This document shows, piece by piece, positions 27,002 through 48,765 of a stretch of 50,494 nucleotides of DNA (its first letter is position 1; the number at the start of each line of letters is the position of its first letter). The notes under the pieces are model-generated. The model did not search any database. It was not told the DNA's origin and saw only the letters and a program-made list of their open reading frames with translations. This DNA comes from a virus. Where the stretch lies: IMG/VR virus record IMGVR_UViG_2788500486_000002, one strand, 5' to 3'. The position numbers and the translations under genes were made by a program.

Positions 27002-27030
27002 TTGACAAGTTGAGCACTTTATGGTATAAT
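27002..27030 (+). promoter_or_regulatory. Consensus sigma70-type promoter with extended -10 (early arm, P1)
   Basis: TTGACA (27002..27007) - 17 nt - TGGTATAAT (27022..27030). Divergent from the late promoter, about 70 bp away. Confidence 0.8.
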
Positions 27031-27036
27031 TACTTG

Positions 27037-27749
27037 TAAGGTACGAGGGTAGTAATACCCCTCCTATATCTCTTTTGTAATAGCATGGGGGACAAGGAGG
27101 CCGTAGGCCGACTAGGGGGTATCAGCTGTAAATAGATAATGTAATGTTTGTTGTAAGGGCAATTGTAGAGTAGTCACTCAAGGAGGGAGGGGCGACCTAC
27201 GGGAGCCCTGTTCTCTTGTGTAAAGAGTAAATGGAGGCCCTTTGGTAAATCCCCGAGTGGTAGTCGTCAAGAATGCCAACTTTTCTCCGAGAAAATCTTA
27301 AGGCATGTATCCCTTTGAATAGAACCACCCCCCTATCCCCCCGGTACCCCCGTCAACTATTATCTATTCTATGGTATATCATCACATGTATTCCCCTAGT
27401 GTATTGCCTCACTAACACACATGTAACCTATAGGTGACTTAACCTCAGCATCACCCCGCAATACTGCTAATCATTCTCACTCTCACTCCCAAACCCTAGG
27501 TTTCTTGCTATTGATAATCACTATCGTCTATTTCCCCTTTGTCTCTCACTTGGCACACATCTTGCTACGCGCACCCGCGTTCATCATGTCCCGCGTACAA
27601 CCATGTCAAGTATGCTTTACACTTGGTTACATTATATCATCTCGTTAAATTTATTTCACTCCATCGGGAACCATCCCCTTGCCTTTTGCGTTTACTCCGG
27701 TATGCCTGTGAGTAATTCCACTCACTAGCCTAACTTTGGAGTATTGAGA
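27037..27749 (+). other. ORF-free transcribed leader / candidate structured non-coding RNA
   Basis: No ORF of 60 aa or more on either strand for ~0.7 kb downstream of P1. Contains AAGGAGG twice without start codons, CCCCTCC and CCCCCCTATCCCCCCGGTACCCCC tracts, and a CT-rich TCTCACTCTCACTCCC. Confidence 0.4.
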
Positions 27750-27947
27750 ATGTCCAAGAATATCAATGGTTTCCGTCCCCTCGGGAATAATGCCTTCGCC
27801 GTAGTGGCCAATGGGCGGGAAATCGGGAGCGTTGCAAAGGGGACAGGCAAGCGGTGGCATCTGCTGTCTGCCGATTGCCTAGTGTCTGAATGCTTTGAAC
27901 ACACACCGAAACATGCCGAGTGCCTTGTGGTCCTAGGGGCCTGCTAA
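27750..27947 (+). CDS. Hypothetical early protein (65 aa)
   Basis: ATG with GGAG 9 nt upstream. The stop TAA is the first 3 nt of a TAATCTATCATC motif, as for other plus-strand genes. A competing minus-strand ORF was rejected. Confidence 0.45.
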   Translation: MSKNINGFRPLGNNAFAVVANGREIGSVAKGTGKRWHLLSADCLVSECFEHTPKHAECLVVLGAC

Positions 27948-27956
27948 TCTATCATC
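27945..27956 (+). repeat. TAATCTATCATC motif copy 1
   Basis: Exact 12-mer. The TAA is the stop of 27750..27947. The next ATG is 26 nt downstream. Confidence 0.9.
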
Positions 27957-27981
27957 ACAATCAATTGAAGGAACAAGACTA

Positions 27982-28197
27982 ATGACTATCCAACAAGTGT
28001 CCGCCCGCACCTTCAAGAACGCGGTTATCTATCGGCTGTCTTGCGAAGATACTATTCGCCTAGACACTACGCCGGACCAAGTATTCCTAAGCGAAGGGCA
28101 GGCAAAGCAATGGATGACGGCCAACAATGTAAGGGACGCTAAGTGGCAAGGGTACACTACACTTCACTTGCCCAACATGCAGTACGTTAGAGACTGA
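27982..28197 (+). CDS. Hypothetical early protein (71 aa)
   Basis: GAAGGA SD 7 nt upstream of the ATG. The stop TGA begins motif copy 2. Confidence 0.6.
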   Translation: MTIQQVSARTFKNAVIYRLSCEDTIRLDTTPDQVFLSEGQAKQWMTANNVRDAKWQGYTTLHLPNMQYVRD

Positions 28198-28206
28198 TCT
28201 ATCATC
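28195..28206 (+). repeat. TGATCTATCATC motif copy 2
   Basis: 11/12 match. The TGA is the stop of 27982..28197. A terminator lies 22 nt downstream. Confidence 0.85.
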
Positions 28207-28227
28207 GCCCCCTCCACCTTGGATTGA

Positions 28228-28260
28228 CCCGCTAGGCTTCGCGCTTGGCGGGTTTTTCTT
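28228..28260 (+). terminator. Rho-independent terminator
   Basis: CCCGCTAGG (28228..28236) pairs with CTTGGCGGG (28244..28252) in 9 bp including 2 G-U, with a 7-nt loop, followed by TTTTTCTTTG. Confidence 0.65.
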
Positions 28261-28490
28261 TGTCTCTGGTGTGCGATACAATGTATCATTTGCCCTTTCT
28301 GTGAAAGTTTCTTTCCTTTTATTTCAATGACTTATGAAATAATTCGCACACCTTGGGAACTTTCCTTTTCGCCGATCGTCTTCCCTACGTTGATTGATTG
28401 AATTTGCTTCGATTGGTTGACGTTACATATCAATCTTTAGGACATTCGCTGTCCGCCCGCTTTGGCGGGAGTTAAAGAGGAGTTAAGCTA

Positions 28491-28811
28491 ATGGCAAGCC
28501 GTTCTGTACGGCGCGCTAGAGCGAATGAACGCAAGGCGGCTAAGGCCTATCGGCTAGCCTCCCGTGCAATTGCTCACAAGCGCCAAGAAAACCTAGCTAT
28601 TGCCGCAAGTAACCGGCCGCCAACCCCGGCGGAGTTACAAGAATTGCGAGCTTGGCGCGGTGTTACGGATAGCACACAACATGTAGCTAATGCAGCTGCA
28701 TCCAGTATGCGGGAGGCTTCCAACGTCAATCGCGCTGGCCGTGATATGTCCGACTTTGACAAGGCTCGCTTCAAGGCAAAAATTTCTCACAAGTATGGGA
28801 ACCTTTCCTAA
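28491..28811 (+). CDS. Hypothetical basic early protein (106 aa)
   Basis: Strong SD (AAAGAGGAG) 8 nt upstream of the ATG, preceded by the CCCGC-TTTG-GCGGG hairpin. Confidence 0.65.
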   Translation: MASRSVRRARANERKAAKAYRLASRAIAHKRQENLAIAASNRPPTPAELQELRAWRGVTDSTQHVANAAASSMREASNVNRAGRDMSDFDKARFKAKISHKYGNLS

Positions 28812-29131
28812 GCTTGTTGGTTGATACTGTATGGTCTAAGCCACCATTAACGGCTAACACATAGGCGGGGATTAGTACCGCCATGCTGTCACCCATCCCG
28901 ATATGCTAGGGATGGGGCTAGAGTTAACGCGACACTCTGCGAAGCTGTCTCGCATTGACTAAGGCCGGACCCTAACGGGTTGCTGAGCGCGGGGAGTGCC
29001 TCTTACATGGGGCGTCGCTGGGAACCTATACGCGGAAGCTATAGGGACTGGCAATGGCGCTACTGTGGGACTATATTTGGCTGAAATAATCCCCTTAGTT
29101 TACCTTTCGTCTATCGACGTGGGGTTTACTA
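28812..29131 (+). other. ORF-free multi-hairpin region (candidate structured RNA)
   Basis: Successive hairpins: GGCGG-9 nt-CCGCC, CCCATCCC-9 nt-GGGATGGG, GCGACA..TGTCTCGC, CCTATA-9 nt-TATAGG. No ORF. Confidence 0.3.
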
Positions 29132-29156
29132 GTGAGCAATGAGGGCATGACCGTGA

Positions 29157-29168
29157 TAATCTATCATT
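29157..29168 (+). repeat. TAATCTATCATT motif copy 3
   Basis: 11/12 match, intergenic, 48 nt upstream of ATG 29216. Confidence 0.85.
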
Positions 29169-29215
29169 GTCCCTGTGCCGTGCCCTCTTTTCTCATTAGT
29201 AGTGGAGCATGTATC

Positions 29216-29389
29216 ATGCTTGAATATTGGTTCGATGAACACAACGGCCAATGGGTCGTGGCACACAAGCAAACAGGAGCCTTTGTCTCCGCTCACAACT
29301 ATGAATGGCAAGTCAAGGCACAATACGGCCAAGACATCTATCATAACGTCTTTTGTTGCGATCATTTTGAATTTGTGGAGGCCGCGTAG
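29216..29389 (+). CDS. Hypothetical protein (57 aa; MLEYWFDEHNGQWVVAHK...)
   Basis: In-frame ATG inside ORF 29132..29389, with GGAG 9 nt upstream. Confidence 0.45.
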   Translation: MLEYWFDEHNGQWVVAHKQTGAFVSAHNYEWQVKAQYGQDIYHNVFCCDHFEFVEAA

Positions 29390-29394
29390 CTACT

Positions 29395-29508
29395 ATGGCA
29401 ATATTTATATTCTTTGCAGGAATGTTTATCGGCGTCCCTGTTGTGGTGCTGTCTATTCTGGACAGCGCCTATCGTTTTGTTCAAGCATGGAAAGGAAACG
29501 ACCTATGA
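29395..29508 (+). CDS. Possible 37-aa membrane peptide (MAIFIFFAGMFIGVPVVVLSILDSAYRFVQAWKGNDL)
   Basis: Hydrophobic helix. The stop overlaps the next ATG (ATGA at 29505..29508). Confidence 0.35.
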   Translation: MAIFIFFAGMFIGVPVVVLSILDSAYRFVQAWKGNDL

Positions 29509-29660
29509 AATTCACGTTCAAAGGCCGCACGGTGGCCACTATTCCGCACCGGAGTATTCGCTCCAAAGGTGAGACGGAACGCATGAGCGAGGATGCAAAG
29601 GCACTATTGCTCCGCCCTCACACCTTTCGCAATCATTCGGGACTGTTCAGCCATGGGTAA
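29505..29660 (+). CDS. Possible small protein (51 aa; MKFTFKGRTVATIPHRS...)
   Basis: ATGA coupling to the preceding peptide. AAGGAAA lies 6 nt upstream. Confidence 0.35.
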   Translation: MKFTFKGRTVATIPHRSIRSKGETERMSEDAKALLLRPHTFRNHSGLFSHG

Positions 29661-29859
29661 AGCTTATCTAGGCGGGCGAAAGACCGGCGGCTATAGTCTT
29701 CGGGAAAGCCTTACAAGTCAAGGGGTTACAAGCGAAGGGGCTATTCGTGAGCACCTTTCCTTTGTCCACAATACTTTGACAGCCAATCCAACAATGGATA
29801 TAACGCGGTACAGGGTAAGCCCTAACTTTCCCAACGCCGCCCCAACAATGATGGGATAA
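29653..29859 (+). CDS. Possible small protein (68 aa; MGKAYLGGRKTGGYSL...)
   Basis: The ATG overlaps the previous stop (ATGGGTAA). In frame with ORF 29593..29859. Confidence 0.35.
   Translation: MGKAYLGGRKTGGYSLRESLTSQGVTSEGAIREHLSFVHNTLTANPTMDITRYRVSPNFPNAAPTMMG
29776..29804 (+). promoter_or_regulatory. Near-consensus sigma70-like promoter candidate
   Basis: TTGACA (29776..29781) - 17 nt - TATAAC (29799..29804), about 190 nt upstream of gene 29994. Confidence 0.35.
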
Positions 29860-29889
29860 CGACAGCATAGCGATTAGGGGCTGGTGGTA

Positions 29890-29901
29890 TAATCTATCAT
29901 C
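29890..29901 (+). repeat. TAATCTATCATC motif copy 4 (overlaps TGGTATAAT)
   Basis: Exact 12-mer. Here it is fused to TGGTATAAT (29885..29893), the same extended -10 used by the consensus promoters. Confidence 0.9.
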
Positions 29902-29993
29902 GGCCCTTTTCCCCTGCGCTGAGTATGTGTGGGAGCCCTTGAGTTTAGGATTAGCAAGGGTTTGTCTAATACCTAGAAAAAGGATTTAATATC

Positions 29994-30584
29994 ATGGAAT
30001 TGCGTGAAATCAATGCCCGTATCCGTGGCATCCGTACCCGTCGTGAAGGCACCCGCGTTGCTATTCAGGAATGTGCTGTTGGCATCGTCGAACATGCTAA
30101 CGAACACGGCGATTGTTCTGCTGCTCACCGTCTTTGCCGCGCTATGGAGCCGAAGCTTCGCTCGCAAGTGGTCAAGTGGTTCACTGAAATTAGCCCTATC
30201 AACGTCAAGATGGGCAAGACCGCTGCTGACGACAAGGCCAACCTCCGCAAGCCGGAACAAAACGGCTACAACGCCTTCAACATTGACCGTGCCCGTGTTC
30301 TGAAGTGGTACGAGCTGGAAACGCCGGAAAGTGCGCCTAAGGTGTACGATCTTACGTCTTTCCGTGAGGACGTACAAAAGGTGCTTGGCCGCTACGCCAA
30401 GATGCTCGAAGGCGACAACGCCAAGATCACTGGTGCGGCTGCTGATGCTATCCGTGCTGACCTTGCAGCTTTCCACGAGGCTATTGCATCCAACGGCCAG
30501 CGTGAACAAACACCGAACCGCGTTAACGATACTAACCCTGTCGTCGACGCTCCGCTCGCAGCACCTATCGCTGTAGCGGCTTAA
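29994..30584 (+). CDS. Hypothetical protein (196 aa)
   Basis: AAGGA SD 10 nt upstream. Helical, Ala-rich C-terminus. No family recognised. Confidence 0.65.
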   Translation: MELREINARIRGIRTRREGTRVAIQECAVGIVEHANEHGDCSAAHRLCRAMEPKLRSQVVKWFTEISPINVKMGKTAADDKANLRKPEQNGYNAFNIDRARVLKWYELETPESAPKVYDLTSFREDVQKVLGRYAKMLEGDNAKITGAAADAIRADLAAFHEAIASNGQREQTPNRVNDTNPVVDAPLAAPIAVAA

Positions 30585-30696
30585 CAGTCCCTAGTCTATA
30601 GGGCCGACCTTGGGCACCGTCGCAAAACTGCCCCCTCTTTTATAATGAGATACGGGACTAATAAGGTCTGTGACGCCTAAAAGTATCACAGTAATT

Positions 30697-30730
30697 GCAG
30701 GTATTTTAATCGGTTGCCTGCCCCTTTTTC
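30697..30730 (+). terminator. Terminator-like hairpin
   Basis: GCAGGTA (30697..30703) pairs with TTGCCTGC (30714..30721), followed by CCCTTTTTC. Confidence 0.45.
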
Positions 30731-30783
30731 AGGTGTTCGCGCGGGCTTTATCCGTGTCTCTTTCTAACAGTGATAATGAAAGG

Positions 30784-30795
30784 TAATCTATCATC
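30784..30795 (+). repeat. TAATCTATCATC motif copy 5
   Basis: Exact 12-mer in the 18-mer GAAAGGTAATCTATCATC. ATG 30796 follows immediately. Confidence 0.9.
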
Positions 30796-31173
30796 ATGTC
30801 TGATACCAAACCTCTCAACCTCGACGAACCCGTCATGCTTTCCGACGGACGTTCCGCTCGTATTATCTGTACGGATAGGGTGTCTGATATGGGGCGAACA
30901 GTGGTGGCCTTGGTGACTCAGGTAGACCACGAAGCAGCTCTGTATTTCAAGGCTGACGGAACGAGCCTAGGTAGGCTCACTCTCGTGAACGTGCCTCCGC
31001 CGAACCGGTTCTTTAACCTGTACAACAGCACTGCTAGTGACATCTGTGGACACAAATCTCTTGAAAGAGCCCAAGACATAGGTAAGGACACTCCGTACAG
31101 TTGGAAAGGCACTCTCGAAGAAACCCCCGACGGAGCGTTCGTAGCGTTCCACCCGAAGCCACAGCCGGAGTAA
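30796..31173 (+). CDS. Hypothetical protein (125 aa)
   Basis: ORF bounded by motif copies 5 and 6. Confidence 0.6.
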   Translation: MSDTKPLNLDEPVMLSDGRSARIICTDRVSDMGRTVVALVTQVDHEAALYFKADGTSLGRLTLVNVPPPNRFFNLYNSTASDICGHKSLERAQDIGKDTPYSWKGTLEETPDGAFVAFHPKPQPE

Positions 31174-31182
31174 TCTATCATG
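31171..31182 (+). repeat. TAATCTATCATG motif copy 6
   Basis: The TAA is the stop of 30796..31173. The terminal ATG (31180) is the start of the next gene. Confidence 0.9.
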
Positions 31183-31809
31183 TCTGTTCTTGCTGTATTT
31201 ATGTGGGTCATCGGACTGCTGGTGGCCTACGTCCTTGTAGCAAAGCTTACCTACGCTGCCCTTGACGGTTTAGGGTTTTGTCAAACCTGCGATGATGAAA
31301 CACAGTCTATTATGGCGAGTGTGTTTTGGCCTGTCGGCATTCCCGTCATCGTTTCTTTGCAATTGCTGAAAGGTATCGGACACCTCTTGACACCTACTAA
31401 GTGGTTGAAATTGTTCAGCAAATTGAGAGGCAAAAGGGACGACGAGATTATCCCCGGCGTGACTAAGCCTTCGATCATTGCTGCTGACATGCTCGTGGCC
31501 CAGATGATCCAAAACCCCCGTGAGGTCAAAAACCTCTCCTTTTCCACTTCTAAGGTTTCTCTTAGGTGGAGAGACGGGTTGTATCCCTCGTATCAGGTTC
31601 GGAATTTTATCCTCTCTGTTCCCGGTAAAACTGAAATACGCTTCGAGGGTGAAGCTGAGCAACGCCTTATCAAAGGTTTGAAGAAAGCCAAGACCCTCCG
31701 TGACGAGATGCTCAAGGCTGACGAGCTTGCCAAGCGTGAGCAAGAAGCCCTCGACGTAATCGAAGCCCTTACAATTGGCAATACCTCTAACGAACAGGAA
31801 AAGGACTAA
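31180..31809 (+). CDS. Membrane protein (209 aa), two N-terminal TM segments
   Basis: MSVLAVFMWVIGLLVAYVLVAKL and SIMASVFWPVGIPVIVSLQLL, followed by a soluble domain. Confidence 0.6.
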   Translation: MSVLAVFMWVIGLLVAYVLVAKLTYAALDGLGFCQTCDDETQSIMASVFWPVGIPVIVSLQLLKGIGHLLTPTKWLKLFSKLRGKRDDEIIPGVTKPSIIAADMLVAQMIQNPREVKNLSFSTSKVSLRWRDGLYPSYQVRNFILSVPGKTEIRFEGEAEQRLIKGLKKAKTLRDEMLKADELAKREQEALDVIEALTIGNTSNEQEKD

Positions 31810-31814
31810 CTGAC

Positions 31815-32693
31815 ATGCAATATAGACGACACGGCGCTGATTGTTGCGGCGCAGGACACATTTCTGGTTTCGACAACGCTACTCCTGACGACCTTGACCG
31901 GTGCATCGGGGAGCACGAACGATCGTGGGCCGGTACTAACCGAATGATCGAGGTTATCCTCTCCGAACGCCAGATCACTACGGGCCGTATGCCTGCTGGT
32001 CGTACTGGCCAAGACTTCGCTAATCGCATTACGCAAGCTACTCGTGATGCTGGCGGCTGGGCGCAAGTGCTTTCGGAGCGAGGCTTCAAGTTCGTTCGCC
32101 GGTTCCGCAACAGCAACAGCGGCCAGAATTGCTACGTGTTTCACCGCATCCCTGAGGAACTGTCCCTTACGGATAACCTTCCGTTCAACTGGCCGGGTGA
32201 AGCACCGAACGGCGGTCGTGCGGGTGTTGTTGAGGCTCCGGCTCGTAACCCCGTTAACAATGAGCGAGCAAACTTCCTGAGCCTTGGTCACGGAGGCACA
32301 GCAATTAACGCCCGTGTACAATACTTTAACCCTCGCGGCGCTCGTCACGGGCAAACGGGAGTTGTAGTAGATCGTCACGGACATGTCGGTGAACTGGAAG
32401 TTCGGTTCAATGCTGATGGAGCACGTGAACGGTACTCTGTTACGTCTTTCCGTCCTGCTCCGCCTCCGGTTGGTGGCGGTCGTGGTGAACCTCAGCCCGC
32501 CCCTGTTCCCCCAGCTCCGGTTATTATGGCTACTGAATGGTTCGCTGTGTTCGGTGACGGTCGTGAACGTGGGGTGTTCCGTACTCAAGCTGAGCTTCGG
32601 GAAGCGTATCCTCGTGTGCGTCGTTGTCGCCAACGCCAGATTTGGAACAACGGTACTTTCAACTTCCTCCCGATACAAAATATCGAAAGGTAA
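31815..32693 (+). CDS. Hypothetical protein (292 aa) with Pro/Gly-rich linker; first gene of the ligase cassette block
   Basis: ATG with AAGGA upstream. The stop TAA begins motif copy 7. An antisense 290-aa shadow ORF was rejected. Confidence 0.6.
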   Translation: MQYRRHGADCCGAGHISGFDNATPDDLDRCIGEHERSWAGTNRMIEVILSERQITTGRMPAGRTGQDFANRITQATRDAGGWAQVLSERGFKFVRRFRNSNSGQNCYVFHRIPEELSLTDNLPFNWPGEAPNGGRAGVVEAPARNPVNNERANFLSLGHGGTAINARVQYFNPRGARHGQTGVVVDRHGHVGELEVRFNADGARERYSVTSFRPAPPPVGGGRGEPQPAPVPPAPVIMATEWFAVFGDGRERGVFRTQAELREAYPRVRRCRQRQIWNNGTFNFLPIQNIER

Positions 32694-32702
32694 TCTATCA
32701 TC
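32691..32702 (+). repeat. TAATCTATCATC motif copy 7
   Basis: Exact 12-mer in the same 18-mer GAAAGGTAATCTATCATC as copy 5, but followed by ACT rather than ATG. Confidence 0.9.
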
Positions 32703-33083
32703 ACTAATGCTCGCATAGCAGTCTATGGTACGCTTCGCAGGGGAGGCCCGGCTAACGGGTTTCTCCTCGGAGCCAAATACCTAGGCCAAGACAAAATCAA
32801 AGGCACGATCTACAACCTTGGGGCTTTTCCGGGTCTTGTTCTCGACGACGGTGGTGAGGTTATTGTAGACCTCTATGAATTGCCCGCCGACGACAACGGC
32901 TCTATGCTGCAAGAGGTTGACATTTACGAGGGTTATTATCCCACGGATAAAAGTCGTTGTCTTTACCATCGCCGTAACGTCACAACTCTTGAAGGTTGCC
33001 TTGAGGTCATGGCTTACGAATATGCCCACGAGGTTGACAACAAGTGGGTCGTTAAATCGGGTGACTGGTTCAACCCAAGCTAA
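32694..33083 (+). CDS. AIG2 / gamma-glutamyl cyclotransferase-like protein; no canonical start codon upstream of the conserved N-terminus
   Basis: The open frame after TAA 32691 reads SIITNARIAVYGTLRRGGPANG...IYEGYYP...VMAYEY (YGTL motif of the GGCT fold). The first ATG/GTG/TTG in frame is TTG 32880, well inside the domain. Confidence 0.6.
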   Translation, partial: SIITNARIAVYGTLRRGGPANGFLLGAKYLGQDKIKGTIYNLGAFPGLVLDDGGEVIVDLYELPADDNGSMLQEVDIYEGYYPTDKSRCLYHRRNVTTLEGCLEVMAYEYAHEVDNKWVVKSGDWFNPS

Positions 33084-33100
33084 ACTCGGAGATACATACA

Positions 33101-34042
33101 ATGGTTCATCGTTTCGCGGATATGGTTTTTAAGCCTGACTGCTCGGAAAAGTCCCTTGAGGTAGCTCGGGGCATCTGGAAAAACTCTAGCCCAAGCAACT
33201 ACATCAGTTTCGCTTGTGGTTCAGGCGACCCCCATCCCGAAGGCGGAGAAAGCTTTAACAAGTACGCTCGTGCAGCTTGCCACGGGCACGTAGCTGGTTG
33301 GGGCTCTGCCCACAGAAAGCGTTACGATTGGGTAACGTCTCGGCTGTCGGTTTATACTGACGCTGACCGTAAACACCTGAACAAGATTTGGGAGTTTGTT
33401 GGAAGTAAAGATTGCCCGCTTAGTCGGTTCATTCTTAACGCTGACACGATGGTGACGGACCGTGCCCTTGTTGCGTCGACGGATGCTCCACGACACATTC
33501 TTCACCTTCTTAACCTTATCTCTCGCCGAGGTTCGGAACACGCCTACGGCCAGCACCACTACGCTGAGATTGAGCCGTTCCTTGATAACAAGATGGTCGC
33601 TCTTTGGTTCGCCCTTCACCTTGGTTCCAATTTCTCTGACAAGCAAGTCGTAGTGTTCTCTGGCGCGGTACACGGTGGAGTGTTCTACAACGTAGGTGTT
33701 GACTCGCTCAAGACTTTCGCCGTTGACCACGGTGTTGTAACCTACGACACCGCTACGTTCCGTGAGAACCGCAATTACACTGGCACTTCTAGCATGATGG
33801 GCCAGAACCGTGGTCAAGCCAGTGCGTACAACGTTATCGCTGATCTTCTCAAAGAACCCGATATTGCTGCTCAGCTTGCCGAGTATCGCTCTAAGCGCGA
33901 CGGCAAAGTCGAGGTTGCAGTGCCTAATCCGTTCAAGCCTCAGCCTGCTACTTCTGGCAAGCCTCTTGCGGGTCAACTCACTGGCGAGGAGTTCAAGAAT
34001 TTCCTTTGTCCAATCCTTAACGAAAGGTTCCCAACACCGTGA
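33101..34042 (+). CDS. Hypothetical protein (313 aa), cassette member
   Basis: GGAGA SD 8 nt upstream. 4-nt overlap (GTGA) with the next gene. No family recognised. Confidence 0.65.
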   Translation: MVHRFADMVFKPDCSEKSLEVARGIWKNSSPSNYISFACGSGDPHPEGGESFNKYARAACHGHVAGWGSAHRKRYDWVTSRLSVYTDADRKHLNKIWEFVGSKDCPLSRFILNADTMVTDRALVASTDAPRHILHLLNLISRRGSEHAYGQHHYAEIEPFLDNKMVALWFALHLGSNFSDKQVVVFSGAVHGGVFYNVGVDSLKTFAVDHGVVTYDTATFRENRNYTGTSSMMGQNRGQASAYNVIADLLKEPDIAAQLAEYRSKRDGKVEVAVPNPFKPQPATSGKPLAGQLTGEEFKNFLCPILNERFPTP

Positions 34043-34827
34043 CCGATGAGACGATTGAAAACTACACTGACAAGGTTTGCCCGGACTTCACCGGCAAGAA
34101 AGCCTTTATCGCCAACGGCGCTATGCGTGGCATGGTTGCTGCTATGTTCGCTGCTTGCGGGTTCACTCGTGCCGACACTGTGGAAGACGCTGATATTATT
34201 GTCTTTACTGGTGGCTCTGACGTGTCTCCTGCGTTGTACGGACAGACAGCTATCTCTGGCACGTATTTTAACCGTGACCGTGACAACCTTGAAGTTGAAA
34301 TCTTTACAAGGGCAAAGGAACTCGGTAAGCCGATGTTCGGTATTTGTCGGGGTATGCAATTCCTTCACGTCATGGCTGGCGGTGCTCTTTGGCAAGACGT
34401 TACCGGACACGCTGGGCCCGATCACTTCATGGTGGACATTGAAGAGGGCGTTCGCCTCAAGGTTACGTCTCTGCATCACCAGATGGTGCAAGTGTCTGAC
34501 AAGATCAACATGCAGCTTATCGGCGTGTGTGAGGATACAATCACCAAGAAGTTTGAGGATGAAAACATTCTCATGCACACTGGTGCTTTGAGCAACAATG
34601 CTCGGGAGTCGACTGCTACTCTTGAAACCGAGGCAGCTTTTTACCCTGACATTAACGCTCTTGCGGTGCAAGGACACCCTGAGTGTGGTTCCGACGAATA
34701 CAAGTCGTGGACTATGAACAAGATTAAGGATCGCTTCTTCGACGAGGCCGACCCTGAAGATTACGAACTTGAATACGAAGTTATTACTGTAAACGCTGAA
34801 GGAGATAGCAAGTGTGCGGAATCGTAG
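34039..34827 (+). CDS. Class I glutamine amidotransferase / peptidase C26 (gamma-glutamyl hydrolase-like)
   Basis: KPMFGICRGMQFLHV (nucleophile-elbow Cys) and AVQGHPE (catalytic His/Glu). Confidence 0.75.
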   Translation: MTDETIENYTDKVCPDFTGKKAFIANGAMRGMVAAMFAACGFTRADTVEDADIIVFTGGSDVSPALYGQTAISGTYFNRDRDNLEVEIFTRAKELGKPMFGICRGMQFLHVMAGGALWQDVTGHAGPDHFMVDIEEGVRLKVTSLHHQMVQVSDKINMQLIGVCEDTITKKFEDENILMHTGALSNNARESTATLETEAAFYPDINALAVQGHPECGSDEYKSWTMNKIKDRFFDEADPEDYELEYEVITVNAEGDSKCAES

Positions 34828-36245
34828 GAATAGCAGGCAAGATCGCCCAAAAAGAACGCAAGATATTCGACAATCTGTTGACTGTCTGCCAGCTACGGGG
34901 CCGCGACTCGACCGGCGTTGTTTCTGTTACGCGTGGCAAAGAGGCCAAGTACATCAAGCAAGTCGGAACGCCTGAGACACTGATCGACCGTAAGCAATAC
35001 GAATCTATCATCGGCTATACTCCGGCTATCCTCATTGGCCATTGCCGCCACACGACTAGCGGTTCAACCAACTACTCTAACGCTCATCCGTTCGACTTCG
35101 ATGAAACTATCGGTGTTCACAACGGTACGTTGGCTCACTCGTGGAACCGTGGCGAGAACGCCAAGGACTACACTGTCGACTCCGAGTGGTTGTACAGTCG
35201 TATTGATGAAGTCGGTATCGAGGATGCTCTCAATGACATTGACAAGACTGGTGCTTGGGCTCTTGCCTTTTACCGCAAGGACACAAACACTCTCAACTTT
35301 ATCCGCAACAGCAAGCGCCCGTTGTATTTCGCTTGGTCAAAGGATAAGGACACGATGTTCTGGGCTTCTGAGCCTTGGATGCTTTGTGTTGTTGATCGTG
35401 ACATTGACATGGCTGTTCTTAATGAAGAGACCGGTGCATGGTACATGCCTCTTCCTGAGAATACTCTCTGGGAAATTGAAGTCGACGCGACCACTAATAA
35501 CAAGTCCAAGATTTTCAACATGAAGCCCCCGAGGGAGATTGAAGGTGGTGCAAATTTTACCTTTCTGGCACCTCCGAAAAAGGTGACACCTCCGACCGGC
35601 CATGGCTCAACTGGTTCTGCTAACAAAGGAGGGAGCGGCGTCATCCACCCTTTTCAAAGAACCGGGGCCGTAGACAGTACGGAGGAAGAACTAGCCACGC
35701 TTCTCGGGTTGCCAGCCCCGACTACCTCAACAAAAGGTTCGGACGCCAAAGCGGACGAGAGTACGAGTTCGACGAAATCCGAAGGGAAATCACAGACGAG
35801 TTCGCAGCGGAGTTCGGGTTCCACGACGGGATCGAAAAGTACAAGCTCTTCTCGGAAAGGTACTCTCTCCCTTCCGGGTCTCAGTTCACCGTCTTCACCT
35901 ACAACCAGCAAAAGAAAGCCCTCAAGCGGCTCAAGCGAGCAAAGCGACTCCTCGACGCGGGAAAGCTCCCCGAATTTAACGCTGGTGCACAGTCAACCCT
36001 CGACATGGAGGGGAGTTAGACGAAGCTCCGACGAAAACGCGAAGAACGTCTCGCTCCGCAATGTTGCTGGGACTTGGTACATCTCTAGCTTGCAAACTTC
36101 TATGGAAATAAGCGAGAAAGTATTCGAAGAAAATACCAATGGCGTGTGTGCGTTTTGTAAGACGCCTATTGGTGGTCTTGAAGAAGTCCACACTCTACTT
36201 AGTCGTAACGCTTTTATTTGTACTGATTGCGGCTCTGGTAGCTAA
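34812..36245 (+). CDS. Class II (Ntn) glutamine amidotransferase fused to a Ser/Thr-rich segment and a C-terminal zinc ribbon
   Basis: GTG start giving MCGIVGIAG (N-terminal nucleophile Cys). The C-terminus CAFCKTPIGGLEEVHTLLSRNAFICTDCG is ClpX-type zinc-ribbon-like. The 35.6-36.0 kb segment is frame-ambiguous (see findings). Confidence 0.7.
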   Translation: MCGIVGIAGKIAQKERKIFDNLLTVCQLRGRDSTGVVSVTRGKEAKYIKQVGTPETLIDRKQYESIIGYTPAILIGHCRHTTSGSTNYSNAHPFDFDETIGVHNGTLAHSWNRGENAKDYTVDSEWLYSRIDEVGIEDALNDIDKTGAWALAFYRKDTNTLNFIRNSKRPLYFAWSKDKDTMFWASEPWMLCVVDRDIDMAVLNEETGAWYMPLPENTLWEIEVDATTNNKSKIFNMKPPREIEGGANFTFLAPPKKVTPPTGHGSTGSANKGGSGVIHPFQRTGAVDSTEEELATLLGLPAPTTSTKGSDAKADESTSSTKSEGKSQTSSQRSSGSTTGSKSTSSSRKGTLSLPGLSSPSSPTTSKRKPSSGSSEQSDSSTRESSPNLTLVHSQPSTWRGVRRSSDENAKNVSLRNVAGTWYISSLQTSMEISEKVFEENTNGVCAFCKTPIGGLEEVHTLLSRNAFICTDCGSGS

Positions 36246-36275
36246 CACTTACTTGAAACGAAAGGATTGAATGTA

Positions 36276-37163
36276 ATGAATACTTCATTTACCCTCGGGT
36301 GCGATCCCGAAATCTTCGTCAAGAACAAGCGTTCCCAGAAGATCGTCTCGGCTCACGGCCTTATCGAAGGCGACAAGAAAGCCCCTCACAAAATTCCTGA
36401 AGGGGCCTATCAAGTTGACGGCATGGCTGTCGAGTTCAACACCGACCCGTATGATCTATCACGTGGTTCGTCTGCTGTGTTCTCTCGTCGTGTCCTCAAC
36501 GTCATGGACCAGATGAAAGCTTCGGTTCAGGCAAAGGACAAGGACCTTACGTTTGCTATCCAAGCAACAGCGGACTTCGATCCTGAGTATCTTGAAGCAC
36601 AGCCTGAGGAAGCCAAGGAACTTGGGTGTGACCCGGACTTCAACGCTTACACTCTTGAGCAGAACCCCCGTCCTAACGGTGAGGTTCCGTTCCGTACTGC
36701 TGCTGGCCACATTCACCTTGGCTGGACTGAAGGCGCTCCTATCGACCACCCCGATCACCTTGCCATTTGCGCGAGTATCGTCAAGTGTCTCGATGCTACG
36801 GTTGGCTTTGCTTCGGTTATCTACGAGCGTGACACCCGTCGCCGTGAAATGTACGGTTGTGCTGGTGCGTTTCGTCCGAAGCCTTACGGAGTTGAATATC
36901 GTACCCCGTCTAACTTCTGGATCGCCAACCACAACCATCGTCAGTCGATGTTCCTTACCGTTAAGCAGACTGTCAGCACTCTTCGTAGTTGCGGCGGCGA
37001 CGAGGTTCGGGCCATTGGGAATTTGAGCGGTTTAACCCCTGAAGAAGTTCGCACAGCTATCGACAACAACAATGTTGAAGCAATTCGTGAGCGATGCTTT
37101 GGTCTTCGTGGCCCTTGGTACGATGACTTCCTTAACGAAAGGTTCGCTAATGTTCTGGACTGA
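36276..37163 (+). CDS. phiEco32-type COOH-NH2 ligase (GCS/glutamine-synthetase-like fold)
   Basis: ATG 36276 with AAAGGA 9 nt upstream. Motifs LGCDPEIF, YQVDGMAVEFNTDP, RTAAGHIHLG and GVEYRTPSNFW fit the family as I recall it. Confidence 0.65.
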   Translation: MNTSFTLGCDPEIFVKNKRSQKIVSAHGLIEGDKKAPHKIPEGAYQVDGMAVEFNTDPYDLSRGSSAVFSRRVLNVMDQMKASVQAKDKDLTFAIQATADFDPEYLEAQPEEAKELGCDPDFNAYTLEQNPRPNGEVPFRTAAGHIHLGWTEGAPIDHPDHLAICASIVKCLDATVGFASVIYERDTRRREMYGCAGAFRPKPYGVEYRTPSNFWIANHNHRQSMFLTVKQTVSTLRSCGGDEVRAIGNLSGLTPEEVRTAIDNNNVEAIRERCFGLRGPWYDDFLNERFANVLD

Positions 37164-37809: not shown

Positions 37810-37817
37810 CTGTTACT

Positions 37818-38993: not shown

Positions 38994-39014
38994 TACAAAG
39001 CAAGGAAAATATTT

Positions 39015-39776
39015 ATGAGATACAGAGTTTTGCCCTATCGAGGTGGCTCAAGAGGGGCCACCGCCCTTGCTCGTAGCCTTAACGGCATGTGCCTTCGTCT
39101 TAACGGCAGTCGGTTCCGCCCTCGCCGTAACGATGTTGTAATCAATTGGGGCAACACCAACAACCCTGATCTGGTACGGCTTTGCACTCACAATGCAATC
39201 GACCTTCGTGACGCAACCAACAAGCTCAACTTCTTTGAGCGTATGAGAGGTTCTGGTCTTGAAAACATCATCCCGCGTTTCTGGACTCGCCCGGAAGATA
39301 TTCCTGACGACGCCTTTCCCATCGTCTGCCGTACCGTCTTGGCGGGACATTCTGGTGAGGGCATTGTTATCGCTGATACTCGTGCTGACCTTGTGCGGGC
39401 TCCTCTTTATGTTGCTTATGTAAAGAAAGAGCAAGAGTGGCGCATCCACGTAGGCCGTCGCGCTGATGATGAAGGAATTATTATCGCCAAGCAGCGTAAG
39501 GCTCGCTCTAGGGACGTTCCTGATGATGAAGTTAACTGGCAGGTACGCAACCACCAGAACGGCTTCATTTACGCACGGAACGACGGCGTAGAGGCTCCTG
39601 AGCGTGTAGTTGACGCTGCTCGTCAGGCTTTGCTTGCAACTGACCTCGACTTTGGCGCAATCGACGTGATCTATCATAGTCGCACCCGCCTTGCCCACGT
39701 CCTTGAAATCAACACCGCACCGGGTCTCGAAGGTGAGACTGTCAACGACTACGTGCGTTTCTTTACGGGAGCCTAA
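39015..39776 (+). CDS. ATP-grasp ligase (RimK / R2K-like)
   Basis: NKLNFF, AGHSGEGIVI, YVKKEQEWRIHV, NHQNGF and AHVLEINTAPGL follow the ATP-grasp motif order. Confidence 0.7.
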   Translation: MRYRVLPYRGGSRGATALARSLNGMCLRLNGSRFRPRRNDVVINWGNTNNPDLVRLCTHNAIDLRDATNKLNFFERMRGSGLENIIPRFWTRPEDIPDDAFPIVCRTVLAGHSGEGIVIADTRADLVRAPLYVAYVKKEQEWRIHVGRRADDEGIIIAKQRKARSRDVPDDEVNWQVRNHQNGFIYARNDGVEAPERVVDAARQALLATDLDFGAIDVIYHSRTRLAHVLEINTAPGLEGETVNDYVRFFTGA

Positions 39777-39837: not shown

Positions 39838-40020
39838 TTGACAGTGTACCGATACAAGTTCACCTTTGCAGGCCACGCTTCTGGCTGGTCTCAAGATCAG
39901 TACGCCACTCGTGACGATGCGTTCATAGCGGGCACTGCCAAGGTCTTGGAAGACCCTAACCTTATCCGAAACGTACACTCTATCGTTGTCTCGGTTCCAA
40001 CGGTTGACAACCGAGTCTAA
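39838..40020 (+). CDS. Hypothetical protein (60 aa)
   Basis: TTG start with GGAGGA just upstream (GTG 39844 is an alternative). Confidence 0.4.
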   Translation: MTVYRYKFTFAGHASGWSQDQYATRDDAFIAGTAKVLEDPNLIRNVHSIVVSVPTVDNRV

Positions 40021-47903: not shown

Positions 47904-48765
47904 GCTTAAAACACTTCCAGAAGACATACTTGGGCTATTCGACCCTAACGTAACGCACGAACCGGACGAAGAGAACCTTGACTGGATTGCTGATAATCTA
48001 AAGGACATTCTTCGCACTCGGCTAAAGGAACGGGAAAAGGTAGACAACCCTCTTCGCTTCTCGTCTCTAGGTCGCCCCGACCGTCAGATTTGGTACACTG
48101 CCAACTCAAAAGGTGGAAAGGAAGACCTCAACGCAAAGACGTACTTTAAGTTTCTGTACGGCGATGTAATTGAATTACTTGTCCTTTTCCTTGCCAAAGA
48201 GTCGGGCCACAAGGTCGAACGGTTGCAAGAGGAGATCGAAGTTGATGGAGTTCTTGGACACATTGACGCCGTTATTGACGATGTTGTGGTTGATGTTAAG
48301 TCAGCTTCGCCATACGGATACAAGAAGTTCAAAGAGAACGCTGTCCTAGACGACGATCCGTTTGGGTACGTCCAGCAACTAGCAGGGTACTCCACGGTTC
48401 TTAACCCCGGCGGTCACGCAGCTTGGGTGGCTTTTGATAAGGTACACGGCGATATTTGCGTCAGTAATCTATCATCATCCATCATCGCCGACCACGACCC
48501 GGCCAAGCGTATTGCTGAACTGAAAGAGGTAATCGACCAAGCTGAACCTCCTAAGAGGTGCTACCCTGACAAACCTGAAGGTAAGTCCGGTAATCGTGTA
48601 CTGGCTATCGGTTGCTCGTACTGCCCGTTCAAGAACGAGTGTTGGAACGGCCTTCGCACTTTTCTTTACTCAAATGGTCCGAAGCACTTTACTCACGTAG
48701 AGGTTGAGCCCAAGGTTTACGAGGTTAAAAACGATAGGGAGCCAGACGCTGAAGTTCAGGAGTAA
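47896..48765 (+). CDS. PD-(D/E)XK nuclease, Cas4/RecB-like with Cys cluster
   Basis: GHIDAVIDDVVVDVKS (D...D-x-K core) and C-terminal CSYCPFKNEC (C-x2-C-x5-C Fe-S type cluster). Confidence 0.7.
   Translation: MAELKTLPEDILGLFDPNVTHEPDEENLDWIADNLKDILRTRLKEREKVDNPLRFSSLGRPDRQIWYTANSKGGKEDLNAKTYFKFLYGDVIELLVLFLAKESGHKVERLQEEIEVDGVLGHIDAVIDDVVVDVKSASPYGYKKFKENAVLDDDPFGYVQQLAGYSTVLNPGGHAAWVAFDKVHGDICVSNLSSSIIADHDPAKRIAELKEVIDQAEPPKRCYPDKPEGKSGNRVLAIGCSYCPFKNECWNGLRTFLYSNGPKHFTHVEVEPKVYEVKNDREPDAEVQE
48465..48476 (+). repeat. TAATCTATCATC motif copy (intragenic)
   Basis: Exact 12-mer inside the nuclease gene, same orientation as all the others. Confidence 0.85.

Follow-up and report, generated by a model that had tools for sequence, protein, structure and literature searches.

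The repeat and its strand bias

What role might be played by a 12-mer, TAATCTATCATC, that recurs on only one strand of a phage genome and often lies exactly where one gene stops and the next begins? The DNA analysed here (the window, 50,494 nucleotides) is a complete podovirus genome of ~50.5 kb from a marine, uncultured phage, the same phage as GenBank MK892749, and judged by comparison with related sequences the motif marks early and middle gene boundaries in a family of marine podoviruses as what is probably a shared signal for the control of gene expression. The phage looks virulent, since an integrase is absent and a lysis cassette is present. It carries an amidoligase cluster of the phiEco32 type (amidoligase, GATase and COOH-NH2 ligase) and two HNH endonuclease genes (25848-26123, minus strand; 46845-47501, plus strand), and neither a phage RNA polymerase nor a phage sigma factor was found in the window. 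Perfect sigma-70 promoters number three, and as the terminator and promoter scan of the window places an intrinsic terminator at 28226-28262 and the next strong sigma-70 promoter only at 40004, the region from 28.5 to 39.8 kb is in need of promoters.

The repeat is confirmed, and it is stronger than in the original prediction, which had described a motif specific to the plus strand with a 10-mer core present eight times. A scan of both strands of the window gave nine plus-strand and no minus-strand copies of TAATCTATCATC with at most one mismatch, where dinucleotide shuffles predict 0.12, and ratios of 8:0 for the 10-mer AATCTATCAT (expected 0.06), 11:0 for the 9-mer core ATCTATCAT and likewise 11:0 for CTATCAT. 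Among all 9- to 12-mers of the window the motif is the most over-represented. All copies reside in the plus-strand, non-structural arm, and the structural arm (3040-26912) has none on either strand. The bias extends to 1.27 Mb of related phage DNA, where the 9-mer core is found 75 times on the gene strand and twice on the other, and the 8-mer core 108 and 12 times, respectively, compared with means of 4.8 (sd 4.3) and 19.7 (sd 10) for composition-matched permuted words.

Judged from the aligned copies, the invariant unit of the motif is the 9-mer ATCTATCAT, with positions 1-2 differing by lineage, and the preferred full-length form is T-R-ATCTATCAT-C/G. The motif is free of G and is accompanied by neither a -35 element nor any other upstream signal that could be found. 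A pyrimidine-purine step always falls at motif positions 11/12 or 12/13, and in most copies the position after the 12-mer is a purine with a pyrimidine before it.

Copies in the window

The copies and the adjoining sRNA-like unit are as follows.

27945..27956, plus strand: copy 1, TAATCTATCATC, exact; its TAA terminates ORF 27750-27947; 26 nt 5' of ATG 27982, which has its own Shine-Dalgarno (SD) sequence (GAAGGAA)
28195..28206, plus strand: copy 2, TGATCTATCATC, 11/12; its TGA terminates ORF 27982-28197; sRNA-like unit directly 3'
28207..28262, plus strand: sRNA-like unit, beginning at the end of copy 2; C-rich 5' end, intrinsic-terminator hairpin, U-tract
29157..29168, plus strand: copy 3, TAATCTATCATT, 11/12 (ending in ATT); intergenic, preceded by TGA, 48 nt 5' of ATG 29216; GATAAT hexamer in register of motif positions -1 to 4
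29334..29345, plus strand: core-only copy ACATCTATCATA within ORF 29216-29389; codons ATC TAT CAT
29885..29901, plus strand: copy 4, TGGTATAAT fused to TAATCTATCATC (29890-29901, exact); 92 nt 5' of a conserved 196-aa gene (29994-30584)
30778..30798, plus strand: copy 5, gene-start context; GAAAGG (SD), TAATCTATCATC (30784-30795, exact) and ATG 30796; the full 21-nt block is identical in relative L007
31167..31182, plus strand: copy 6, canonical gene-start; GGAG (SD), TAATCTATC and ATG (31180); motif from 31171, 11/12, its TAA (31171) being the stop codon of ORF 30796-31173
32685..32702, plus strand: copy 7, GAAAGG and TAATCTATCATC (32691-32702, exact); its TAA terminates the 292-aa ORF (31815-32693)
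35001..35012, plus strand: intragenic copy GAATCTATCATC, 11/12, in the glutamine-amidotransferase gene 34812-36245; codons GAA TCT ATC ATC
36452..36463, plus strand: weak relative TGATCTATCACG, 8-mer core only, within the COOH-NH2 ligase gene
39667..39678, plus strand: intragenic copy TGATCTATCATA, 10/12, in the ATP-grasp gene 39015-39776; codons GTG ATC TAT CAT
48465..48476, plus strand: intragenic exact copy within ORF 47896-48765

These positions agree with those originally predicted, except that the 10/12 copy at 39667 had been placed at 39666; the two weaker relatives predicted at 29334 and 36452 both proved to be core-only copies. As had also been noted, the initial TAA or TGA serves as the upstream stop codon in four copies (1, 2, 6 and 7), the next ATG abuts the motif in one case (30796) and lies inside it in another (31180), and copy 4 is fused to TGGTATAAT (29885-29893), which provides a perfect extended -10 hexamer that reaches into motif positions 1-4. 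Copy 7 has an in-frame ATC at motif positions 10-12, where ATG stands elsewhere, and opens the GGACT ORF (to 33083), which is without a canonical start and was missed by gene callers. The intragenic copy at 35001 has G in place of T1, where TAA would be an in-frame stop.

Conservation in related phages

The motif is kept in relatives with only 40-65% protein identity, and phages retrieved by an exact-pattern scan for the motif alone turned out to be true relatives. At orthologous junctions it persists between diverged flanks (L006, L007, L091, L142, L171, L211 and L216). The counterpart of copy 4 lies 85-100 nt 5' of the homologous 196-aa gene in L007, L142, L171 and L216/L217, and the hexamer TATAAT is found at this copy in three of six lineages (window, L142 and L171), extended by TGn in the window. 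In L091, L128 and L130 the motif is located at the stop codon of the ortholog of the 292-aa gene and 10 nt before tRNA-Arg/Gln, in L216 13 nt before tRNA-Arg, and in L129 5 nt before a tRNA-like gene. One copy in L007 has a strong terminator 15 nt 5' of it; terminators upstream of motif copies are not enriched overall.

Within coding sequence, too, the core is conserved while the flanks have diverged, namely at the SII codons of the ATP-grasp gene, where the relatives have a core copy at a different place (TCT ATC ATC), and at the GNLSS codons of the primase gene. The invariance of nine nucleotides across lineages, including such coding sequence, implies direct selection on the sequence.

Two sequence contexts

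Across the family the motif occurs in two contexts, comprising 29 gene-start copies and 20 other intergenic copies. In the former, the core occupies the spacer from a normally placed SD to the ATG (AAAGG-tAATCTATC-ATG), and the ATG begins at motif position 10 (21 copies), 13 (five), 12 (two) or 14 (one). In this commoner context the core fills the 9-nt spacer, and its final two bases double as the A and T of the start codon. Upstream of the motif the consensus reads AAAGG (purine fraction 0.77, versus 0.57 in the other classes), and the SD-ATG spacing of ~9 nt equals that of motif-free genes in the window. The most plausible reason why the motif overlaps stop and start codons is that a G-free 9-mer is squeezed into the 9-nt spacer from SD to ATG, which is the sole non-coding room.

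The other intergenic copies often follow or supply the upstream stop codon and have a non-translated unit directly 3'; they precede tRNA genes (by 5-13 nt), the sRNA-like unit or, with a long leader in between, the 196-aa gene (by 85-100 nt), and the downstream flank of this non-start class is rich in pyrimidines (0.66). Positions 1-2 read TG instead of TA in 5/20 of these copies, and 13/29 gene-start copies have other dinucleotides there.

Possible functions of the motif

We tentatively suggest that the motif may be a sense-strand control element recognised in the transcript by a single sequence-specific factor, in analogy to the start-associated sequences discussed below. Gene-start copies lie downstream of a functional SD and must therefore be present in translated mRNA, from which a transcript-read element is proposed, and the lack of G together with the pyrimidine-rich downstream flank favours a single-stranded RNA target. 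The trans-acting reader could be a binding protein or an endoribonuclease, from either phage or host. Binding or cutting between SD and AUG would jointly switch off or remodel the translation of many early and middle genes, and at other copies the same event would generate the 5' ends that tRNA precursors, the sRNA-like RNA and the leader of the 196-aa gene possess. It speaks for this model that the copies before tRNA genes and the sRNA-like unit cannot be translation signals, and that the late (structural) arm is free of the motif. However, neither a trans-acting factor nor any RNA-binding or nuclease family was found among the early proteins (Pfam, PHROGs, NCBIfam, PADLOC), no window protein follows the motif through the relatives, and a specificity of nine invariant bases is not known from bacterial endoribonucleases such as RNase E. 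In three lineages a perfect TATAAT overlaps the copy that precedes the 196-aa gene, and since a transcript starting there would be motif-free, a DNA-level role fits that copy better. Also, the purine after the 12-mer with its preceding pyrimidine looks like a transcription start, and the L007 terminator is placed as expected of a new transcription unit.

A promoter is the commonest explanation for such phage repeats. Here it would be a phage-specific, middle-class promoter with a single -10-like element, used by host RNA polymerase and an unrecognised phage sigma factor or activator; we regard this as a serious rival, somewhat less probable than the transcript-read element. TAATCT, which matches TAnnnT, would then correspond to -12 to -7 and ATCATC to the discriminator, with transcription beginning at the position-13 purine or, alternatively, at A10, in line with the unvarying pyrimidine-purine step; the outcome would be new transcription units for the tRNAs, the sRNA-like RNA and the 196-aa gene as well as internal promoters along the operon. 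Such an assumption would account for the copy within a perfect TATAAT in three lineages, for the copies that closely precede tRNA genes or mark the very beginning of the terminator-ended sRNA-like unit, for the copy behind the L007 terminator and for the need for promoters before 40004. However, every second non-intragenic copy is flanked by a well-spaced SD on one side and the ATG on the other, so that a start at positions 12-13 would remove the start codon and one at A10 would render the conserved SD pointless; the latter would also shift the -10 register to NNTAAT, in which most copies carry G instead of A at the key -11 position. The variable positions 1-2, the missing -35 element and the lack of enrichment of upstream terminators likewise argue against it, and a strictly conserved discriminator is not known as a sigma-70 feature. 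Parallels are the gp36-dependent middle and late promoters of phiEco32 (PMC12276001), which are also of a single-element type, with AATGTA matching AATCTA at 5/6 positions, and which belong to a podovirus likewise without its own RNA polymerase and with the same amidoligase cluster. Yet no gp36-like sigma factor was found in the window, and the phiEco32 geometry, with the element centred at -11.5, would put the start at motif position 16, past the abutting ATG.

It is less probable still, yet worth serious consideration, that the motif is a DNA site comparable to the stoperators of L5 and Cluster A phages, asymmetric sites of ~13 bp that number more than 20, lie in promoters and in short gaps between genes, and have an orientation tied to the direction of transcription (PMC9283540). 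A phage-encoded monomeric protein bound to the asymmetric duplex would repress the promoter that copy 4 overlaps and, at the co-oriented intergenic copies, block elongating RNA polymerase, so that early and middle genes are shut off. In its anatomy the motif matches that system point for point, with 10-12 co-oriented window copies, one overlapping TATAAT and the expected start site and the rest in gene junctions across stop or start codons. Stoperators, however, occur in both arms instead of one and serve a gp71-type HTH repressor in temperate phages, whereas the present phage looks virulent; searches of the window and of the 196-aa family gave no gp71 homolog, none of the window proteins matched an HTH or repressor family, no sequence similarity to the stoperators was seen, and no window protein co-varies with the motif across relatives. 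Moreover, an orientation-dependent roadblock is unusual outside the L5/Cluster A system, and TATAAT is kept at the orthologous copy in only half of the lineages.

The motif might also have no dedicated reader and be a stereotyped junction cassette, i.e., a favoured spacer or stop context at cassette borders that is spread by microhomology-mediated module shuffling, although we consider this doubtful. In its favour, related lineages lacking the motif have stereotyped initiation regions of their own (GGAGAATAAAT..ATG nine times in L193, AAAGGAACCGACGATG eight times in L194 and TTCAAAGGAAA..ATG six times in L191), and different genes follow orthologous copies, with GGACT or tRNAs after the 292-aa gene and differing ORFs after the 196-aa gene; tRNA-Arg(tct) and GGACT both travel with the motif at their 5' border, in different registers. 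The invariance of the core even inside coding sequence is not accounted for in this way, however, nor are the copies far 5' of the 196-aa gene, and 9-12 bp are short for homologous recombination.

Concerning the roles listed in the original prediction, which already stated that none of them suited all the spacings, the strand specificity and junction location on which they were founded hold, but three of them are disfavoured. A leaderless promoter is weakened by the optimally spaced SD that gene-start copies retain (AAGG-N9-ATG), and a termination-reinitiation signal is incompatible with copies before tRNA genes. Strand-specific nicking of virion DNA, of the kind seen in T5 or Pseudomonas phage tf and perhaps due to one of the two HNH endonucleases, would suit a motif of this length and strand bias but seems very improbable, given that it offers no rationale for the register with start codons, the preceding SD, the tRNAs that follow or the restriction to one arm. 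Least credible of all is a translational enhancer pairing with 16S rRNA: despite the position of the motif in the initiation region of many genes, its best complementarity to E. coli 16S rRNA, which may differ from that of the host, is 10/12 and equals the median of shuffled motifs, and the copies before tRNA genes would be left unexplained.

Comparison with other phage repeats

In functional terms the transcript-read element would resemble the RegB and RegA control of T4. RegB sites and RegA operators are short sense-strand RNA signals in the initiation regions of many early genes and bring about a coordinated post-transcriptional shut-off that spares the late genes. RegB cleaves GGAG inside the SD and RegA sites are loosely conserved, in contrast to the strictly conserved 9-mer in the spacer, at which cleavage or binding is putative; a PHROGs search of the window gave no homolog of RegA or RegB. 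The PeSL (promoter-early stem-loop) cassettes of T4-type phages, ~40-50 bp with a sigma-70 promoter and a hairpin, are likewise repeated regulatory sequences on either side of variable early genes and probably double as linkers in the recombination that shuffles modules, but the present motif is a linear sequence of 9-12 nt without a -35 element or hairpin.

In its position the motif resembles the start-associated sequences (SAS) of Cluster K mycobacteriophages (PMC3203893; PMC12699233). Both are short, asymmetric repeats (12-13 bp) that occur ~10-19 times per genome in a single orientation, are restricted to the non-structural arm and are located a few bases from start codons, with the upstream stop sometimes within the repeat; for both, the associated genes vary from relative to relative, most other phages lack the repeat, and the function is putative. 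SAS, GGGATAGGAGCCC, includes the SD core and precedes the start by 3-7 bp (PMC3203893; PMC12699233), whereas the present motif is free of G, follows the SD instead of including it and overlaps the start codon, occurs also before tRNA genes, before the sRNA-like unit and 85-100 nt 5' of a gene, and belongs to another type of phage, a marine podovirus, with a different host. ESAS-like inverted repeats were not seen.

The sRNA-like unit

The 5' end of the unit that follows copy 2, GCCCCCUCCACC, is single-stranded, C-rich and resembles an anti-SD sequence. The unit aligns to positions 1-64 of the Rfam model RF02278 with a sub-threshold score of 20.4 bits (gathering score 50), and its predicted fold has a free energy of -23.6 kcal/mol (z = -4.0).

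The motif in the window

When both strands of the window were scanned for the 12-mer repeated at gene boundaries (the motif, TAATCTATCATC), nine plus-strand and no minus-strand copies were found at up to one mismatch, with 0.12 expected; together with plus to minus counts of 8:0 for AATCTATCAT and of 11:0 for the 9-mer ATCTATCAT, this bears out the strand specificity claimed in the original prediction. The motif is the top over-represented 9- to 12-mer of the window, the 7-mer CTATCAT is confined to its copies, and these all reside within 27945-48476, the structural arm having none. It is devoid of G and sits 3' of a separate Shine-Dalgarno sequence (SD). The positions originally listed are correct with the sole exception of 39666, which should read 39667. 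The copies at 27945, 28195, 31171 and 32691 do provide the stop codon of the upstream gene, as had been proposed, the ATGs at 30796 and 31180 do lie at the motif, and copy 4 (29890) is indeed fused to TGGTATAAT (29885-29893), a candidate promoter element judging from its sequence. An E. coli Chi octamer, GCTGGTGG, is located at 29880-29887 directly 5' of copy 4; since it is not kept in the related viral contig L007, which has GGGTGGTGG there, this is probably a coincidence.

The phage genome

With about 50.5 kb, the window represents a complete, podovirus-like genome that is organised in two divergent arms and is probably circularly permuted. Its main features are the following.

3040-26912, minus strand: minus arm with terminase, portal, capsid, tail tube proteins, internal virion proteins and lysis cassette
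3830-4297, minus strand: holin of the GTA-type three-TM family (PF11351)
25848-26123, minus strand, and 46845-47501, plus strand: HNH endonuclease genes, one with a NUMOD4 motif
26932-26904, minus strand, and 27002-27030 and 40004-40032, plus strand: perfect 12/12 sigma-70 consensus promoters (TTGACA-17-TATAAT)
27000 through the window end and on to 2650, plus strand: plus arm, beginning with small early ORFs and, after these and the phiEco32-like cluster, encoding primase-helicase, DNA polymerase A, nucleases and a B12-type ribonucleotide reductase
28207-28262, plus strand: sRNA-like unit of 55 nt, directly after copy 2 (28195)
32697-33083, plus strand: GGACT (gamma-glutamyl cyclotransferase-like) ORF (Pfam E = 8e-16)
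32697-39776, plus strand: phiEco32-type cluster of GGACT, Peptidase_C26 GATase, GATase_6, COOH-NH2 ligase, amidoligase_2 and an ATP-grasp-like protein

Because of the three perfect consensus promoters, the host sigma-70 polymerase can be taken to drive the main units, and since two of them are divergent, one heading each arm, the structural genes, too, are apparently under a consensus host promoter. An identical promoter sequence heads the early arm of the related contig L216. No strong sigma-70 promoter was found between 28.3 and 40.0 kb of the window. T7-like replication genes and a lysis cassette are encoded, and no phage RNA polymerase, sigma factor, integrase or repressor was found among the window ORFs; in particular, an RNA polymerase domain is absent from every ORF longer than 100 aa, all of which were scanned, the largest plus-arm proteins being the primase-helicase, DNA polymerase A and the ribonucleotide reductase.

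The phiEco32-type cluster is conserved in about 80 related viral contigs, candidate products being a modified metabolite, peptide or DNA base. Nucleotide searches in near and distant modes against deposited phages gave no match, the window proteins are about 30-35% identical to those of SIO1, Lentibacter and other podoviruses, and the identical phage was found again in numerous metagenomes of marine origin, two examples being GenBank MK892749.1 and a Tara Oceans scaffold. The GTA-type holin, the B12-type ribonucleotide reductase and the kinship with cobavirus-like roseophages hint at an alphaproteobacterial host. Host assignment from genome bins was uninformative, as the relatives fall into unrelated MAGs; a 98.5-kb contig encoding the same 196-aa protein (see below), which, being twice as long as the genome, is probably a concatemer, was binned as a Thalassospira MAG. 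The two HNH genes probably encode homing endonucleases, one having inserted into the structural arm and the other into the replication arm. At the gathering thresholds no Rfam family matched anywhere in the window. Two stretches are without convincing ORFs, 27031-27749 (about 720 nt, behind the early promoter) and 28812-29156 (about 345 nt, behind the 106-aa gene); Rfam matched neither of them, blastn detected nothing similar in the relatives that had been fetched, and they may represent long leaders or non-coding RNAs.

Conservation in relatives

Homologs of the 196-aa protein, whose gene lies behind copy 4 in the window, are encoded with 52-69% identity on short motif-bearing contigs. In L007 the motif is located about 100 nt upstream of this homolog, and a second copy, GAAAGGTAATCTATCATCATG, directly behind a strong terminator, is part of a 21-nt block exactly identical to window 30778-30798 despite a different downstream ORF; in the contig L006 the motif lies at a stop codon. 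Scanning viral contigs for the bare 15-mer pattern GGTAATCTATCATCA gave 120 loci, most of which are chance matches in AT-rich contigs, and also yielded five true relatives that have the amidoligase cluster, the primase-helicase (54-64%) and the DNA polymerase (57-66%) in common. A further 80 relatives were gathered by alignment of the ATP-grasp protein, and more from genome bins and cluster members. Between 3 and 11 copies, always on the gene strand, were found in each of L129, L135, L139, L142, L160/161, L166, L171, L203, L211 and L216. In 1.27 Mb of family DNA the ratio of gene strand to other strand is 108:12 for the 8-mer core and 75:2 for the 9-mer, as compared to means of 19.7 (sd 10) and 4.8 (sd 4.3), respectively, for composition-matched permuted words in the same DNA. 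Motif positions 1-2 differ among lineages (TA being commonest, then TG, AA, CA and AC), and the invariant unit is therefore ATCTATCAT.

Conservation at orthologous sites, when checked, was found upstream of the 196-aa gene, where the motif is kept at a distance of 85-100 nt in the window, L007, L142, L171 and L216/L217; the copy there is accompanied by TATAAT in the window, L142 and L171, by AATAAT in L007 and by ACTAAT in L216/L217.

Copies at gene starts

The 105 unique gene-strand copies of the family were sorted into 29 gene-start, 20 other intergenic and 56 intragenic ones, the first class being defined by an ATG that opens an ORF of at least 40 codons at the 3' part or edge of the motif. 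Accordingly, 29/49 non-intragenic copies in the family, and 3/7 in the window, are near a translation start. The ATG begins at motif position 10 in 21 of the 29 copies (ATCTATC/ATG), at position 13 in five, at 12 in two and at 14 in one. On its 5' side the motif is abutted in this class by a consensus AAAGG, with a purine fraction of 0.77 vs 0.57 elsewhere, resulting in AAGG-N9-ATG. As motif-free window genes are spaced alike, these are ordinary SD-led initiation regions in which the motif forms the spacer. The fixed register with the ATG is most simply a matter of packing, a G-free 9-mer ending in AT fitting the 9-nt spacer between SD and ATG in one way only, and by beginning with TAA or TGA the motif is able to double as upstream stop codon. 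Neither a -35-like nor any other upstream signal is present in any motif class.

Gene callers left the GGACT ORF unpredicted in each of the three near-identical contigs. From the in-frame upstream TAA (32691) to the conserved AVYGTLRRG N-terminus it is free of ATG, GTG and TTG; its in-frame codon at motif positions 10-12 is ATC, 9 nt past GAAAGG. Going by the sequence, GGACT may thus either be initiated at AUC or have a mutated start codon. In its orthologs the ATG is found at motif position 16 (L216) or 8 nt upstream of the motif (L166). A conserved uORF starting at the ATC/ATA codon at positions 10-12 was dismissed, as the peptides downstream are not conserved.

Copies before tRNA genes, an sRNA-like unit and the 196-aa gene

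The 20 other intergenic copies follow the consensus T(A/G)ATCTATCAT-N-GCCC..CT and have no SD, and their leading TAA/TGA is often the stop codon of the upstream gene. The motif lies 10 nt before tRNA-Arg/tRNA-Gln in L091/L128/L130, 13 nt before tRNA-Arg in L216 and 5 nt before a tRNA-like gene in L129. Structures resembling tRNAs but uncalled by ARAGORN were seen just 3' of the motif, at L091 720-830, where an 11-bp long-range helix flanks a T-arm (GGGTTCGATTCCCGG), and at L129 16260-16340, cloverleaf-like and with GCCA at the end.

In the window, the sRNA-like unit behind copy 2 has a single-stranded, C-rich, anti-SD-like 5' end (GCCCCCUCCACC) and an intrinsic terminator hairpin (-23.6 kcal/mol, z = -4.0), and gives a full-length, sub-threshold match to the Betaproteobacteria toxic sRNA RF02278 of Rfam (20.4 bits vs a gathering score of 50). 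Tracts of the CCCUU/CCUCC type also occur 3' of other non-start copies. In the leader that separates the 196-aa gene from the motif (window 29902-29993, L007 1022-1121, L208 8-104), a putative hairpin is formed by CCCTTG...CAAGGG in the window, by CCCCTG...CAGGGG in L007 and by CCCGAG..GCGGGC in L208, and the 5' CCUUU tract of the leader could conceivably pair with the SD of the 196-aa gene itself; RNAalifold applied to five leader sequences favoured a different 7-pair helix with 2 compensatory pairs. L208 is a 731-bp contig that begins inside the motif; its start was discounted as an RNA 5' end because the source is a DNA metagenome. Upstream terminators, considered as a sign of transcription-unit starts, are not significantly enriched, being found at 6/21 gene-start and 0/16 other copies vs 12.7% of 1794 control gene starts.

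Copies within genes

Some of the 56 intragenic copies are due to chance. Others display conservation at the nucleotide level amid diverged flanks: the ATP-grasp SII codons TCT ATC ATC carry the core in six lineages, and the primase GNLSS codons (GGT AAT CTA TCA TC) in four.

Comparison with known systems and search for a reader

The nearest counterpart described so far is provided by the Start-Associated Sequences (SAS) of Cluster K mycobacteriophages, 13-bp asymmetric repeats of unverified function that occur in a single orientation and in the right arm only, beside start codons, and sometimes include the upstream stop codon (PMC3203893; PMC12699233). Likewise, the motif is a short asymmetric multi-copy repeat in essentially one orientation in the non-structural arm. 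However, the SAS consensus GGGATAGGAGCCC contains the SD core AGGAG, whereas the G-free motif has its own sequence, sits in the spacer 3' of a separate SD and also before tRNA and sRNA-like genes, and belongs to another phage and host group.

The repressor gp71 of L5 reads asymmetric, transcription-oriented operators and stoperators (PMC9283540), which the motif sites resemble in being asymmetric, intergenic and oriented with transcription. L5, however, is a temperate phage with a monomeric HTH repressor, while the window is without integrase or repressor and encodes a lysis cassette; in a phmmer search of all window ORFs with gp71, no E value was lower than 0.6, the hhalign probability of gp71 with the 196-aa family is 0.2%, and no HTH Pfam family matched the window proteins. 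The middle/late promoters of phiEco32 carry AATGTA centred at -11.5 and are read by the phage sigma gp36 (PMC12276001). AATCTA in the motif is a 5/6 match to this, but the same geometry would put the transcription start at motif position 16, which in the 29 gene-start copies is already beyond the ATG, and no gp36-type sigma was found in the window ORFs, be it by blastp or phmmer with gp36, by Sigma70 Pfam matches or by hhalign of gp36 with the 196-aa family (probability 0.3%). From canonical sigma-70 promoters the motif differs by the lack of a -35/-10 pair at 16-18 bp and of upstream information content in any class, and for promoters of T7-like single-subunit polymerases the window encodes no phage RNA polymerase. 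As with the targets of T4 RegB/RegA, the motif is found in initiation regions of early genes and is absent from the late (structural) arm; however, PHROGs and Pfam scans of the early proteins revealed no RegA/RegB family member. As the sequence that defines the SAS is not shared and no protein characteristic of the stoperator, gp36 or RegB systems is present, the motif belongs to none of these systems. No paper mentioning the motif sequence itself was found.

A trans-acting factor that recognises the motif (a reader) was also sought by comparing the small early proteins to PHROGs, Pfam, NCBIfam and PADLOC, and by phylogenetic profiling (tblastn, then phmmer --max); the former gave no match and the latter no window protein specific to motif-positive relatives. 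The all-helical 196-aa protein (phrog_1448), encoded behind the TATAAT-embedded copy, has a poor predicted structure (mean pLDDT 48.6) and is also encoded in motif-negative relatives, in which neither variant motifs co-evolving with it nor an alternative repeat were detected. As these searches provided no recognisable candidate, the reader should be a host factor or an unrecognised phage protein.

Possible mechanisms

The motif is most safely described as a sense-strand gene-boundary control element that is kept by selection on the nucleotide sequence itself. Its presence in initiation regions as well as before tRNA and sRNA-like genes, and its separability from the SD, narrow the possible mechanisms. 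A pure translation-initiation signal fails wherever the motif precedes a tRNA gene or the sRNA-like unit, or lies a long way 5' of a start codon. Tentatively ranked first is the possibility that one sequence-specific binding or cleaving factor would act on the transcript at the motif: the gene-start copies must be in translated mRNA, the motif and its flanks are G-poor and hence presumably single-stranded, and cleavage or blockage at the remaining copies would set the 5' termini of the tRNA precursors, the sRNA-like RNA and the 196-aa leader. A phage-specific promoter, which we consider doubtful, would explain the non-start class very well, with its TAnnnT, a pyrimidine-purine step at the expected start, the TATAAT overlap and the tRNA and sRNA units, and would fit the long stretch without strong sigma-70 promoters. 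It accounts poorly, however, for the gene-start class, where transcription from positions 12-13 would remove the start codon, and where a start at A10 would produce a leaderless mRNA, in which a well-spaced SD would not be maintained, and would leave G at the essential -11 of the -10 hexamer in most copies.

A stoperator-like DNA site agrees with the anatomy of the motif but is unlikely, as both a repressor and a temperate lifestyle are lacking. The motif-negative relatives with stereotyped initiation regions of their own could be taken to favour recombination or stereotyped junctions that need no reader; this explanation leaves the invariance of the motif inside coding sequences unaccounted for and appears improbable. 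Strand-specific nick sites in virion DNA, as in T5 and tf, are hardly compatible with the register with start codons and thus highly improbable, and least credible of all is pairing with 16S rRNA, the motif being no more complementary to that of E. coli than are shuffled motifs, i.e., than expected by chance.

With respect to the transcript-level mechanism ranked first, a fully specified version, which is itself unlikely, would make the motif the target of a hitherto undescribed, highly sequence-specific RNA-binding or RNA-cleaving activity of the phage or of an alphaproteobacterial host, acting simultaneously between SD and AUG of about 10 early/middle genes and also liberating tRNA precursors and the anti-SD sRNA (28207-28262). 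If true, abundant marine podoviruses would possess a global post-transcriptional switch of the RegB kind, to which a phage sRNA that interferes with ribosome binding might be coupled.

To our knowledge, strand-specific gene-start repeats have been described in few phage groups only, namely as mycobacteriophage SAS and stoperators, and we know of no reader identified for the SAS in 15 years. The motif is an unrelated further example from a widespread uncultured family of marine podoviruses, and its anatomy is clearer in that the invariant 9-mer can be separated from the ribosome-binding site. In practical terms, the motif pattern alone retrieves family members from metagenomes, and it flags gene starts missed by gene callers, e.g., that of GGACT with its apparent AUC start.

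Other repeats in the family

The motif-negative relatives L193, L194, L191 and L144 have their own stereotyped initiation regions with 5-9 repeats on the gene strand only, GGAGAATAAAT(aa)ATG, AAAGGAACCGACGATG, TTCAAAGGAAA..ATG and GTAACATGA, respectively; the family as a whole may tend towards stereotyped gene starts. In addition, long tandem arrays of 9-12-nt units (e.g., GGTCGCGGTCGG, GTCATGGTC and GGTCTGGGT) occupy the early region of L002/L156, L140, L154, L169, L177, L178, L176 and L181; their length varies between relatives, and they appear to fall inside homologs of the Cys-rich 292-aa protein of the window or its neighbours.
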